A stretch of 64,000 nt of DNA. Source: an uncultured Mycoplasmatota bacterium (GTDB lineage Bacteria; Bacillota_I; Bacilli_A; RF39; UBA660). Below the pieces are notes generated by a model. That model was not told where the DNA came from and did not search any database. It was given only the letters and a program-made list of their open reading frames with translations. Below, in pieces: positions 1 through 15,394 of this stretch. The translations under genes and the position numbers were made by a program. Position 1 is the stretch's first letter; every line of letters starts with the position of its first letter. The stretch covers positions 4,554 to 68,553 of the forward strand of contig CANPJT010000001.1 of NCBI GenBank assembly GCA_947574255.1, given 5' to 3'.

Positions 1-1079
1 GAAAATAATTTTTCTTGTATTTCTTTTGGTTCATTTGCTATAAACTCTTTTTCGTCTGAAACAATCTCTAGATATTTTTCTTGTAATAAATTAGGTTGCT
101 GTAATATATTTATTCTTTTATTTACTGCTTCAATGTGAGATTGCAACCCTTTTAAATTATTTTTTCTGTCTTCTTCTAACACAAACTGAATTGTTTGATC
201 CCATCTTTCTACTTTTTTTGAACAGCGTTTTATACATGTTTCAATTGAAGTATTAAATATTTCTTGGGTATGTTCAGAGTTACAAGAAGCTACAATGAGT
301 GTTGCTAAAGAAAATATATTGGAAAAATTATTTCTATTTTCTTCTACATGAGTTATATCTTTAAAAATATCTGAAAAAATGTAAGGATTAGAGTACATAT
401 CATGTACTTTATTCCAGGAATCACATATTTCTTTTGGAAGAACAAGCATTAATAAAGTATATACAAGATAGTAAATATAATAGGAATTCTTTTCTTCTAT
501 AGGAAAAAAATTTAAAACCATGTCTAAAAGATGATAATGATATTCGCTTTCGCCTTCATTTAGCATTTGTAACATATCATTTGCAAATGGAAATTCACTT
601 GGATAAACATAATTTTGATTAATATGCTGTAATTCATGTTGTAATACATGAGCTAATCCCGGTTCGTCTATCAATTCAATTGTTTCACCACAATGACACA
701 CACCTGATGCTGATAAATAGTATTCACCATTTTCATCTAGAATAAAGCTTTTTTCTTTTTTTGAGAATCGTGTTGTTAATTCATTTGTATTAATAGGTAT
801 TTTTTGAATACATTTATACAATGAACACTGAGGATTTACAAGAATTTCTTTTAATTCCAATATTTTTATATCTTTGGATTGCTTTAATTTTTCAAAATTA
901 TACTTTATATATTCATTAACACTAAAATGATATAAGATATTAGTATTAGGTTTATAAAATTTTAGAATAAATAAAAACCATTGTCTTAAAACTTTAATAG
1001 TTTTATTATCCCAATTTTTTTCTACACATATTCTTTCTAATTCTACAAATTGTTGGAGAGATTCAGTATAATCTGGCAT
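1..1079 (-). CDS. Putative HExxH zinc-metallopeptidase-like protein, paralog A (partial; C-terminus lies beyond the window start)
   Basis: Reverse-complement translation from the ATG at 1079..1077 gives MPDYTESLQQFVELERICVEKNWDNKTIKVLRQWFLF..., parallel to the N-terminus of the 13810..15204 protein. Contains CHCGETIELIDEPGLAHVLQHELQH (HExxH) followed by NEGESEYH, matching EGNAVYH in the paralog. Overlaps the upstream small ORF by 17 nt. Confidence 0.5.
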   Translation of the reverse strand, partial: MPDYTESLQQFVELERICVEKNWDNKTIKVLRQWFLFILKFYKPNTNILYHFSVNEYIKYNFEKLKQSKDIKILELKEILVNPQCSLYKCIQKIPINTNELTTRFSKKEKSFILDENGEYYLSASGVCHCGETIELIDEPGLAHVLQHELQHINQNYVYPSEFPFANDMLQMLNEGESEYHYHLLDMVLNFFPIEEKNSYYIYYLVYTLLMLVLPKEICDSWNKVHDMYSNPYIFSDIFKDITHVEENRNNFSNIFSLATLIVASCNSEHTQEIFNTSIETCIKRCSKKVERWDQTIQFVLEEDRKNNLKGLQSHIEAVNKRINILQQPNLLQEKYLEIVSDEKEFIANEPKEIQEKLF

Positions 1080-1278
1080 TTATATCCTCCTTCATTGCTT
1101 GATATAATTTAAAATCTTTATTTTTAATTTCCTCAATTTTTTTTAGTTTTTCTTCTTTAGACACAAAAATATTTTGATTTAAAAATAAATTCCATTTATC
1201 AATCACTTCATATACTAAATCTTCATTATCACAAATTTTAAGATATTTTAATTTACATTTTTCTGGCATTTTTAACAT
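1063..1278 (-). CDS. Small (71 aa) partner protein of the HExxH module, paralog A
   Basis: About 50% identical to the 15188..15394 ORF (shared KLKY.K.C.N.D..YE.ID...LYQAM.EDINA). SD-like AAGGAA upstream. Translationally coupled to the downstream HExxH ORF. Confidence 0.5.
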   Translation of the reverse strand: MLKMPEKCKLKYLKICDNEDLVYEVIDKWNLFLNQNIFVSKEEKLKKIEEIKNKDFKLYQAMKEDINARLY

Positions 1279-1521
1279 TCCTTATAAACATATTATAGCA
1301 AATTCAAAAAATGAAATATATAACATATTCCATAATTTTCTTTTATTTACAATAATTAATATACAATTTCATTTACCGCAAGTTTTCATTTGTTCCTCTA
1401 ATATTAAATAGATTTAAATTTTCTTAACTAATTTATTGATTATAATTTTGGGTAAATTTTGATACTAATTCAAATATTTTGGCCATTCTTCTATCTTATT
1501 TTAAAATAATAGATTATTATT

Positions 1522-2064
1522 TTATATTTTCTTTAATATTTCTTGAATTTTTAAAGAAGATATATCCATTTCTTTTTTGGTTATTTTTTTATTATTATAA
1601 TGAATAATTTTTACTCCAGCTTTTTTTAACATATATTTACTTATTTCTACTAATTCTAATTTTGAATACATTCTTAAATAAACTACTTTTTTTATTCCAA
1701 CCTGAATAATTTCTTTAGTACATTCAGTACAAGGAAACCAGGTAATATATAAAGTTGAACCATTCAAATCTTTAGTATCACCACAATAATTTAAAATTGC
1801 ATTGCGTTCAGCATGAACTACATAATAATCTTTTATGTTTTTTAAAACCCCTGTTTCTTCTCCTGTTGATAACCAATCAAATTCATCATCATTCATTCCA
1901 ATTGTTAAACCATTATACCCAATAGATAATATTTTGTTATTTATTTCCTTAACTATACATGCCCCAACTTGATTATGAGGATCTTTACTTCTTAAGGAAG
2001 AAAGAATGGCTATTCCCATAAAATATTCTTCCCAACTTAGATAATTATCTCTTTTACCAGACAT
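1522..2064 (-). CDS. dCMP/cytidine deaminase (ComEB-like)
   Basis: HAERNAI ... PCTEC zinc-binding deaminase motifs in a 180-aa protein. Confidence 0.8.
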   Translation of the reverse strand: MSGKRDNYLSWEEYFMGIAILSSLRSKDPHNQVGACIVKEINNKILSIGYNGLTIGMNDDEFDWLSTGEETGVLKNIKDYYVVHAERNAILNYCGDTKDLNGSTLYITWFPCTECTKEIIQVGIKKVVYLRMYSKLELVEISKYMLKKAGVKIIHYNNKKITKKEMDISSLKIQEILKKI

Positions 2065-2130
2065 TCTTCACTCCTTTTTGTTAGTATTTTAACATTCAAT
2101 ATAATTAAAAACAAGGTTATTTAACCTTGC

Positions 2131-13330: not shown

Positions 13331-13757
13331 ACTTTTGTTTTTCCTTTAACATGTATTCACTAATATTAGTTTCTATTTCTGGCAAACTTTTTTTCGATAG
13401 ATTTGTAATAATAACTAATTCTTTTGCAGTGTCTATTGTTATTTTACCAAAAAATATTCCAGAATTAACTTGCATATCATTGAATAAGTCAGGAGTTATT
13501 GTATTTAAAGAATATCCAAATAGTATATTTTTTTGACCAATCATAATTCGCTTTGTTGTAAGTGCAATTGCAGCTGTACAATATGAGTTTAAAGGATTAT
13601 CATTTAATTGCCCTGCAAAAGCATATAATACTTCTTCTCCAGGATTTAAATGGCGCTCAATTACTTTACTGTGTTTTTTGACACGCCACATTACAGTATT
13701 TTTATATTTTTTCTTAAACTTTTTTATTTGGTCATATACTGCACCCATAAAGATCAC
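13302..13757 (-). CDS. Bacterial PH-domain (bPH_2) protein
   Basis: HLNPGEEVLYAFAGQ...AAIALTTKRIMIG fits the bPH_2 pattern. Confidence 0.5.
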   Translation of the reverse strand: MIFMGAVYDQIKKFKKKYKNTVMWRVKKHSKVIERHLNPGEEVLYAFAGQLNDNPLNSYCTAAIALTTKRIMIGQKNILFGYSLNTITPDLFNDMQVNSGIFFGKITIDTAKELVIITNLSKKSLPEIETNISEYMLKEKQKYVQDEKTKI

Positions 13758-13809
13758 CTCTTTAATTTATTTTAACCTTTTTTATTATGAGAAGCAATAA
13801 AAAAGAATA

Positions 13810-15204
13810 CTAATATTTTATATTCATTTCGTCTTCATAAGAAACGGCTTTTATTGATTGAACAAATAAAATTTTTATTTCTTCACTTTTTTCTTGAATT
13901 AAAAAAGTTTCTACTTTTTTTACTAAATCTTGAAATATATCATTTATACTTAAGTCTTTTTCTAAATATTTTTGAATAATTTGATATAGACTTATTCCAA
14001 ACTGGTAATTTTTATGTTTGTATTCTTCAACAAATTCACTTTCATTAATTTTTTTCTGATAAGCTTCAATTGATTTCTTAGTTGAATATATTTGATGTTT
14101 TAATAATTTTTCATATTCTTCAACAGTAGCATTTTGTTCTAGCTCAAACAATAATTTTTTTTGAGTTTCTAAAGATGCTTCTTTAAATATACGTTCTTTA
14201 GCTTCTTTATATTCTCTTAAATATTCTTTTTCTAACAACTTAGGGTTTTGTAATATTTCTTTCATCTTTATTAATTGTTTTTGATATTTTTTTTCTTGTT
14301 CTATTTCAGATTTATAAGAGCTATAGCTTTCTAGTTTTAATAAACAATCTTGATAAGAACAGTTAAGAGAATCTTTTATAGTTTTCAAATTATTTTCAGG
14401 AATGCTTTTAATTAATAAAATTGTGGCAAGAGAAAATATCTCTGAAAAAAAATCTTTTTGAGATTCTGGTAGATAAGCAACGTTAAATTTACCTTGGCAA
14501 AAACTGTCAAACATATTTTTAGGTAAAGAAATTGATAATAACATGTATATTTGATAATAAAATTCATATTTGTAATTTTGAATATGTAATGCATCCCAAA
14601 AAACAAATGGTGAATGTATTTGTCCTTTAAATAGTCTTTCATGATATACAGCATTTCCTTCACGAAACATTTTACGCATATTAGTTGAATATGGATAAAT
14701 ACTAGGATAATAAAATCCTACTAAGTCTTGTTCAAGGTGAGTTAATTCATGATGAAAAGTTACAGTTAATTCTTCTTCTTTTTCTTTTAATAATTGAATC
14801 TCATATCCTAAACACCAACAAGCACCAATACAGTCGAAAAAATAATCACCATTTGAATCAATAACATATTTATTTTTTATTTTTTTTAATAGAAAATTCT
14901 TTTTATTGTTTTTAATTGGATAAACTGATGCTTGCTCTATTTGATTATAAAAATAATTAGATTTATCTTTTAATACTTCTTCAACATTAAATAGAGTTAA
15001 ATGGCGAACTTTTTCTAAAATCTGTAATTTCTTTTTTATATATTCTTCTAATGAAACTTGATTAAAAATATCTAAATTGGGATTATAATATATGATTAGT
15101 TCAAACAGCCATTTTTTTAATAATTGTTTTAATTCTGCATTGTAATTTTTTTCGAAACATATTCTTTCTAATTCTACATAATATTTTTTATAAATTGCTG
15201 GCAT
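13810..15204 (-). CDS. Putative HExxH zinc-metallopeptidase-like protein, paralog B (464 aa, coiled-coil-rich C-terminal half)
   Basis: GACWCLGYEIQLLKEKEEELTVTFHHELTHLEQD...MFREGNAVYH: HExxH plus a downstream Glu, as in gluzincin/ImmA-like folds. Same N-terminus (YVELERIC.EKN) as the partial ORF at 1..1079. Confidence 0.55.
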   Translation of the reverse strand: MPAIYKKYYVELERICFEKNYNAELKQLLKKWLFELIIYYNPNLDIFNQVSLEEYIKKKLQILEKVRHLTLFNVEEVLKDKSNYFYNQIEQASVYPIKNNKKNFLLKKIKNKYVIDSNGDYFFDCIGACWCLGYEIQLLKEKEEELTVTFHHELTHLEQDLVGFYYPSIYPYSTNMRKMFREGNAVYHERLFKGQIHSPFVFWDALHIQNYKYEFYYQIYMLLSISLPKNMFDSFCQGKFNVAYLPESQKDFFSEIFSLATILLIKSIPENNLKTIKDSLNCSYQDCLLKLESYSSYKSEIEQEKKYQKQLIKMKEILQNPKLLEKEYLREYKEAKERIFKEASLETQKKLLFELEQNATVEEYEKLLKHQIYSTKKSIEAYQKKINESEFVEEYKHKNYQFGISLYQIIQKYLEKDLSINDIFQDLVKKVETFLIQEKSEEIKILFVQSIKAVSYEDEMNIKY

Positions 15205-15394
15205 TTATATCCTCTAACATTGCTTGATATAACAAAGGTTCTTTTTCTTTTATTTTAATTATTATTCGTAGTTTTGTTTCTTTAGATATTGTAGAATTAG
15301 TTAACATTAAAGAATTAAATTCATCTATAGTTTCATAAAAAAAGTCTATATTTTGACACAATTTACGATATTTTAATTTTAATTTTTCACTCAT
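15188..15394 (-). CDS. Small (68 aa) partner protein of the HExxH module, paralog B
   Basis: Paralog of 1063..1278. Strong SD AAGGAG. Overlaps the downstream ORF by 17 nt. Sits 35 nt after the rplQ stop with no intervening terminator. Confidence 0.5.
   Translation of the reverse strand: MSEKLKLKYRKLCQNIDFFYETIDEFNSLMLTNSTISKETKLRIIIKIKEKEPLLYQAMLEDINASNL

Follow-up and report, generated by a model that had tools for sequence, protein, structure and literature searches.

A lineage-restricted two-gene operon of uncultured gut Bacilli encoding a putative zincin-type metallopeptidase and its small coupled partner

What do two similar gene pairs encode that lie 14.1 kb apart on one contig, and what joins the small gene of each pair to the large one? 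The stretch of DNA analyzed here (hereafter the window) is a 64,000-nt segment of contig CANPJT010000001.1 from an uncultured Mycoplasmatota bacterium. Near its start it carries two modules, A and B, each consisting of a gene for a 68-residue protein (small A, small B) that overlaps a gene for a much larger protein with an HExxH motif (large A, large B). With moderate confidence, the large protein is taken here to be a zincin-type peptidase and the small protein its obligate partner. The argument draws on (i) the paralogy of the modules, (ii) the conservation of the motif, (iii) the coupling of the two genes, (iv) their co-divergence, (v) synteny, and (vi) the restriction of the family to one group of bacteria.

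Related loci or contigs used for comparison carry L-numbers and protein records carry P-numbers; L009 is the nearest relative, with rplQ and rpoA products 98% and 96% identical to those of the window. The minus strand carries all the genes discussed from the first 17 kb. The features of the two modules are as follows:

1063..1269, minus strand: small A, 68 aa (71 aa if translation began at another ATG, upstream at 1278)
1..1079, minus strand: large A, partial at the window start, 359 aa visible
1085..1090, minus strand: Shine–Dalgarno sequence GGAGGA of large A, within the 3′ end of small A and 5 nt ahead of the start codon (ATG, 1079)
624..638, minus strand: HELQH of large A
546..557, minus strand: EGES of large A
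15188..15394, minus strand: small B, 68 aa; the L009 orthologue is 71% identical
13810..15204, minus strand: large B, 464 aa
15210..15214, minus strand: Shine–Dalgarno sequence GAGGA of large B, within the 3′ end of small B and 5 nt ahead of the start codon (ATG, 15204)
14737..14751, minus strand: HELTH of large B (H152, E153, H156), in predicted helix 143–159, proposed to bind zinc and to supply the catalytic base
14650..14661, minus strand: EGNA of large B (E182, G183, A185), with E182 as proposed third zinc ligand, in predicted helix 173–193
14545..14547, minus strand: conserved Y220 of large B

The modules, their family and its distribution

The original prediction described two small–large pairs with a 17-nt overlap in each, and the open reading frames (ORFs) and overlaps are as it had them; LYQAM.EDINA and VELERIC.EKN likewise occur in both copies. 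The large proteins share 29% identity over ~360 residues (E = 7e-40) and the small ones 53–55% (E = 7e-21; about 50% had been estimated), the small protein being the better conserved between the paralogues. On these similarities modules A and B, which have the same orientation and lie 14.1 kb apart, are anciently diverged paralogues, as had been supposed, of a previously undescribed two-gene operon. The small A ORF spans 1063..1278, and its likelier start is at 1269, which has AGGA 9 nt upstream and gives a product equal to the 68-aa record P0051 from a 77,192-bp contig. Orthologues of the truncated large A are 471–475 aa long, those of P0002/L001 and L100 being 71% and 74% identical to it.

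The large family is rare: when 1.84 billion cluster representatives are searched exhaustively with HMMER, a profile of large A and large B retrieves only 47 of them at E ≤ 1e-3, and 21 of the 47 reach E ≤ 1e-30. Word-indexed protein searches return one protein for large B and four for a 41-sequence alignment, low-complexity words having apparently saturated the candidates. The subfamilies are numerous, deep, and mutually only 20–33% identical. Neither Pfam nor NCBIfam holds a model that matches the large or small proteins of the two modules above threshold, which agrees with the initial failure to recognize the family, and PADLOC (E ≤ 0.01), PHROGs, and PDB sequences give no significant match to them.

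The motif HE[LM]xH followed by EGxA is nearly invariant in an alignment of 41 large-family members (large B numbering): H152 is present in 40/41, E153 and H156 in 41/41, E182 in 40/41, G183 in 39/41, and A185 in 35/41, with P171 and the downstream Y220 each in 39/41. The gap from H156 to E182 varies between 22 and 28 residues. Loss of the HExxH in orthologues, named at the outset as one outcome that would sink the idea, is therefore not observed, and the gluzincin-like pairing of HExxH with a downstream glutamate holds across the family. Two finer details fared less well. The CxC element, placed directly before HELxH, actually lies ~20 residues before it, with C129 in 17/41 members and C131 in 3/41; within the proposed EGxxxYH, the EG stands, whereas Y187 (21/41) and H188 (19/41) do not. 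Judged from the alignment, CxC and YH are lineage-specific traits rather than family features. The cysteine counts also set the family apart from the zinc-binding anti-sigma factors, which have a conserved HxxxCxxC and a sigma-factor gene next to theirs, and the 68-aa partner matches no sigma family.

The homologous contigs all derive from gut metagenomes or metagenome-assembled genomes (MAGs), have a GC content of 24–36% (17–33% along the window), and are titled uncultured Bacilli, Tenericutes, Mollicutes, Erysipelotrichaceae, or “Mycoplasma sp. CAG:956”. The operon is restricted to uncultured, low-GC, reduced-genome gut Bacilli, and the record titles suggest an RF39-like lineage. A tblastn search with large B finds no relatives in phage genomes or plasmids, none were found among IMG/VR viral contigs, and neither the genome contigs scanned with the A + B alignment nor the metagenome contigs scanned give matches. 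There are at least two module copies per genome. An A-type module follows the SipW cluster (described below) in L031 and in L100–L103, where uvrB comes next; the latter are contigs of P0065, a protein on record on 74 contigs. Module B occupies the same place in L009, in which no module A is seen within 700 bp after the dCMP deaminase gene. Apart from one transposase gene 4.5 kb away in L001, no mobile-element genes occur near the modules.

The predicted fold and its closest relatives

An AlphaFold2 model of large B based on the 41-sequence alignment has a predicted local distance difference test score (pLDDT) of 93.4 and a predicted template modeling score (pTM) of 0.86; an earlier model from a two-sequence alignment (pLDDT 57) was set aside. 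The model consists, in order, of three N-terminal helices (residues 3–65), a β-sheet (68–139), a helix that carries the HExxH (143–159), and a helix that carries the EG (173–193), after which the C-terminal half is all-helical, with helices of up to 47 residues. Long helices make up more than half of the protein. As modeled, the succession of sheet, HExxH helix, and glutamate helix is the layout of a gluzincin core.

Gluzincins, or MA(E) peptidases, share with the large protein a β-sheet, an HExxH motif on an α-helix, and a glutamate in an EGxA context on the next helix, ~18–60 residues downstream; in large B, the motif and the predicted secondary structure place both helices accordingly. The conserved Y220 could stabilize the transition state. 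The “EGxAxY” context presumably resembles that of M1, M9, and Peptidase_MA_2 enzymes. The HExxH-x18-E spacing that characterizes M1 and Peptidase_MA_2 is, in contrast, absent, the distance being 18 residues in M1 and 22–28 in the large family, and Peptidase_M1 and Peptidase_MA_2 appear neither for large A or large B at E ≤ 1 nor among the 25 families that recur most often across the 41 members at E ≤ 5. The large family further differs from gluzincins in that none of them matches it significantly in sequence or fold, in N- and C-terminal helical domains that match nothing, and in its obligate small partner gene, which is not a known feature of gluzincin families.

With the large B model as query, Foldseek finds nothing in PDB or BFVD at E ≤ 1e-3; its top PDB match, anthrax lethal factor, is non-significant (E = 0.22). 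A profile search of PDB sequences returns proabylysin alone, again without significance (E = 0.72). The best PDB matches of both methods are thus zincins, and neither is significant. Proabylysin (PDB 4JIU) belongs to the minigluzincins, ~100-residue single-domain proteins that are inhibited by their own C-terminal tail. The resemblance covers an edge strand and the HExxH helix; the large protein, unlike these enzymes, has ~460 residues and a separate partner. Among Pfam families, DUF6782 (“putative metallopeptidase”) recurs as a sub-threshold match in 8/41 members and DUF3920 in 6/41. In the members inspected these matches cover ~35–50 residues, again a strand and the HExxH helix, and all fall short of the gathering threshold of 27 bits, the best scoring 17. 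Neither domain is characterized, and a search of the literature on both produced nothing useful.

Hydropathy analysis reveals no transmembrane segment in the large proteins (maximum 19-residue Kyte–Doolittle mean 1.3), and the large protein is therefore probably soluble and cytoplasmic.

The small partner and its possible roles

Upstream DNA is visible at 14 distinct large-family loci. In 12 of these contexts (window A, window B, L001, L003, L005, L009, L089, L091, L093, L095, L096, and L100), a homologous ORF of 68–75 residues overlaps or abuts the large gene by 1–23 nt. The overlaps measure 17, 17, 14, 23, 4, and 1 nt in different lineages, and the Shine–Dalgarno sequence falls within the small ORF in six of eight homologous junctions. 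Since the ribosome-binding site of the large gene lies within the last codons of the small gene, the two proteins are likely to be made together; the overlaps and the position of these sites bear out the tight coupling first noticed in the window.

A search with the small-protein alignment returns 49 clusters, the full-length ones all being 68–76 aa long and the sole name given to any of them being “hypothetical protein [Bacilli bacterium]”. A large-family gene follows in all small-family contexts that were inspected, immediately downstream for the two small-family proteins looked up independently. Across 12 pairs, the pairwise identities of the small proteins track those of the large ones (Mantel r = 0.85, 0/5000 permutations as high), from which it follows that the pair is inherited as a unit.

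The small family conserves K6, Y9, E39, and a C-terminal L-Y-(Q/N)-x-(M/I)-x-(E/H)-D. Its members show no consistent Pfam family and no significant match to PDB sequences, and no helix-turn-helix (HTH), ribbon-helix-helix (RHH), or other DNA-binding family is detected in them. The small protein is probably all-helical. An RHH-type antitoxin fold, considered on account of the K-L-K-L-K-Y N-terminus, was rejected, as L5, Y9, and L12 follow a helical rather than a strand periodicity and no such family matches. Two other candidates for the junction itself were discarded: a fusion by programmed frameshift, because the overlaps are not equal modulo 3 across lineages (17, 14, and 23 versus 4 and 1), and a conserved RNA hairpin, because five of six z-scores lie within ±0.7 (L089, −2.0) with no shared structure. 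DNA conservation at the junction is explained by the Shine–Dalgarno sequence, the conserved peptides, and an extreme AT codon bias.

In the proposed mechanism, the large protein would be a lineage-restricted cytoplasmic zinc metallopeptidase whose N- and C-terminal helical domains wrap a gluzincin core. Zinc would be held by H152, H156, and E182, with E153 as the general base and Y220 as a possible ligand of the transition state. Translational coupling would yield the small partner in a fixed ratio to the large protein, to which it may bind as an obligate regulatory subunit that either keeps the peptidase latent or sets its specificity. In minigluzincins, latency arises from a peptide segment that occupies the cleft, a precedent for the inhibition proposed here in trans. 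Trans-inhibition is preferred because of this analogy with prosegments and self-inhibiting minigluzincin tails, at a confidence much lower than that attached to a peptidase with a partner, and an adaptor role of the small protein is equally compatible with the data. A bolder version, which is doubtful but retains some likelihood, is that of a new two-component protease switch, in which a zincin with a helical architecture not seen before is gated in trans by a 68-residue detachable prosegment or antitoxin-like inhibitor and reduced-genome gut Bacilli would retain diverged copies for different targets or for conflict with something that evolves fast.

The following observations weigh against a peptidase with an obligate partner. 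First, no adjacent partner is seen in two of the 14 contexts (P0030 in L092 and P0039 in L094). Second, the predicted structure covers the large protein alone. Third, large B (13810..15204, versus 8575..9945 in L009) is the fastest-diverging protein of the syntenic block, its catalytic motif being strictly conserved: identities to L009 are 98% for rplQ, 96% for rpoA, 87% for LysM, 84% for DUF4352, 81% for bPH_3, 71% for small B, 63% for unk372, and 61% for large B. A value of 61% beside 81–98% for most neighbors is unusual for a housekeeping enzyme.

This fast evolution, together with the splitting of the family into its deep subfamilies, keeps alive a different account, namely a toxin–antitoxin (TA)-like or protease–inhibitor addiction pair in which the free large metallopeptidase is toxic and the small protein neutralizes it stoichiometrically. 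The modules resemble type II TA operons in their small upstream gene that overlaps a larger one, in the several diverged copies per genome, in their rapid divergence, and in the diverse chromosomal neighborhoods of the family. They depart from such operons in lacking any recognizable toxin or antitoxin domain in Pfam or NCBIfam and any PADLOC defense model at E ≤ 0.01, in a small protein without a detected DNA-binding domain, and in their vertical inheritance at positions that are stable and syntenic within clades, with a single transposase gene nearby and no phage or plasmid relatives found. The gap between rplQ and module B, moreover, is 35 nt long and contains no terminator-like site, and a large protein of ~460 aa far exceeds typical toxins in size. 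An addiction pair is accordingly judged unlikely.

The same gene order recalls immR–immA and ddrO–irrE, in which a small gene lies directly upstream of, and overlaps, the gene of a cytoplasmic HExxH protease. By this analogy, the peptidase would act on the small protein instead of being regulated by it; the small protein might, for instance, be a regulator that is cut in response to a signal, with its conserved C-terminal LY(Q/N)x(M/I)x(E/H)D as a possible site of docking or cleavage. The hallmarks of these systems, an M78 protease and an HTH partner, are nevertheless missing, as neither protein matches Peptidase_M78 or an HTH family, and the modules have no integrase, prophage, or other mobile-element context. 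A substrate role is hence improbable. The ImmA-like, anti-sigma, and toxin–immunity labels first attached to the modules gain no support from family membership, with no M78, sigma, or toxin/antitoxin family among the matches.

Genomic setting and meaning for the family

The preferred reading, a peptidase with its partner, leaves the arrangement of the two modules to be explained. The original prediction viewed them as direct repeats that bracket a 12.5-kb accessory segment and could promote its deletion or inversion, and their shared orientation and 14.1-kb spacing are compatible with such repeats. A comparison anchored on bPH_3, in which 80 loci were kept of 300 bPH_3 relatives from species-representative genomes, argues otherwise. 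Apart from a stretch around a SUFU gene, the order in L009 is that of the window: rpsK, rpoA, rplQ, small B, large B, bPH_3, unk372, LysM, DUF4352, tRNA-Cys, a secreted protein, an Asp-rich repeat protein, SipW, a second secreted protein, bPH_1, and dCMP deaminase. The interval from bPH_3 through dCMP deaminase is largely kept also in L013–L015, L021, L027, L028, and L031, and its genes are syntenic in relatives with or without one or both modules. Its base composition bears no island signature. Variation in this region is found in the two modules and the SUFU stretch rather than in the SipW/LysM/tRNA-Cys block. The modules share no exact DNA match longer than 22 nt, and other similarity is confined to a few patches of 42–89 nt with 71–88% identity, which is too little for efficient homologous recombination; direct repeats would, besides, give deletion and not inversion. 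Because the interval is syntenic in relatives and the DNA match between the modules, whose large proteins are only 29% identical, is too short, the notion of a mobile or deletable segment between repeats is not supported and is highly improbable.

The slot between rplQ and bPH_3 varies among relatives. It holds module B in the window (after a gap at 15395..15429) and in L009, a hexapeptide acyltransferase gene alone in L010 (9366..9991), a 305-aa protein without assignment plus a split copy of the acyltransferase gene in L012 (8214..10006), and a valS-like gene, a 373-aa protein, and the acyltransferase in L025 (5352..10000). By sequence, the acyltransferase is probably cysE; Pfam gives the Hexapep repeat only.

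The ORF-free stretches 7449..8168 and 8799..9864 flank the SUFU-domain gene (8169..8798; PF05076, E = 2e-28). The whole stretch, 7449..9864 with ~1.8 kb free of ORFs, sits between tRNA-Cys and the next secreted-protein gene. These two are ~100–300 bp apart in L009, L014, L027, L028, and L031, and no SUFU homologue is found in any of the 80 related loci, so that this stretch is the insertion specific to the window, adjoining a tRNA gene.

The SipW cluster (2659..7448), which is syntenic in several relatives, comprises a SipW-type signal peptidase (3337..4191; TIGR02228, 106 bits) with a small secreted protein on either side, one of which has a weak match to a SipW-cognate signal peptide. It also includes a 734-aa Asp-rich protein (4491..6695) with a 36-nt (12-residue) “DxNGDGKPDINI”-like repeat. 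The cluster looks like one for a secreted fiber or adhesin.

The genes bPH_3 (151 aa), unk372, a triple-LysM protein, a DUF4352 membrane protein, and tRNA-Cys (9865..13757 in the window, and L009–L088) form a conserved string in low-GC gut Bacilli. The unk372 product is a single-pass membrane protein of ~370–420 aa without a family match; its gene adjoins bPH_3 in 65 of the 80 loci kept (L003–L007 and the window counted), most of which also have LysM. Its orthologue is split into two ORFs in the NCBI MAGs L003 (1785..3024) and L004 (694..1938). The break in L003 falls at X residues, which suggest masked or ambiguous bases, and the split is probably an assembly artifact rather than a pseudogene.

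A bacterial pleckstrin homology (PH)-domain gene had been pointed out near each module. Both genes are real; bPH_1 (2131..2592) and bPH_3 (13302..13757), however, belong to different Pfam families with no detectable mutual similarity, and among the 72 loci whose sequence extends 1.8 kb or more upstream of bPH_3, only L009 has a module beside that gene, so that a PH domain is not a shared module trait. For the same reason, a functional link to bPH_3–unk372–LysM, suggested by adjacency in two distant lineages, was treated as weak.

Peptidoglycan-related neighbors recur: LysM in the window, L009, and L003–L008; PBP2B in L089; Amidase_3 with SpoIID in L095; a polysaccharide deacetylase (L094); and GH3 (L003). 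In L089 (1..7928), the order is mraZ, rsmH, an ftsL-like gene, PBP2B, a 634-aa protein without assignment, a protein with a weak sub-threshold DUF1292 match, and then the small and large genes. Such neighbors and the predicted predominance of long helices would suit a non-catalytic helical scaffold, in which the HExxH is kept for metal-dependent folding only and the protein has a structural role, perhaps tied to the nearby cell-envelope genes. The association with these neighbors is a post hoc lead only, and the single module found next to the bPH_3–LysM operon among 72 related genomes counts against it. An invariant E153, the position of the catalytic base in zincins, retained together with both histidines and the downstream glutamate is, in addition, the pattern that would be expected for an active enzyme. 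There is thus little likelihood of a purely structural protein.

The family, unmodeled and lineage-restricted, is best filed within the zincin metallopeptidases as one with a dedicated small partner. If this assignment is true, the zincin superfamily would gain a family that has no Pfam, NCBIfam, or PDB counterpart and is accompanied by an obligate small protein. Its several copies reside in uncultured gut bacteria with small genomes, in which retained paralogues are likely to matter, and the pair would offer a tractable two-protein system for understanding how a small protein controls a metallopeptidase.

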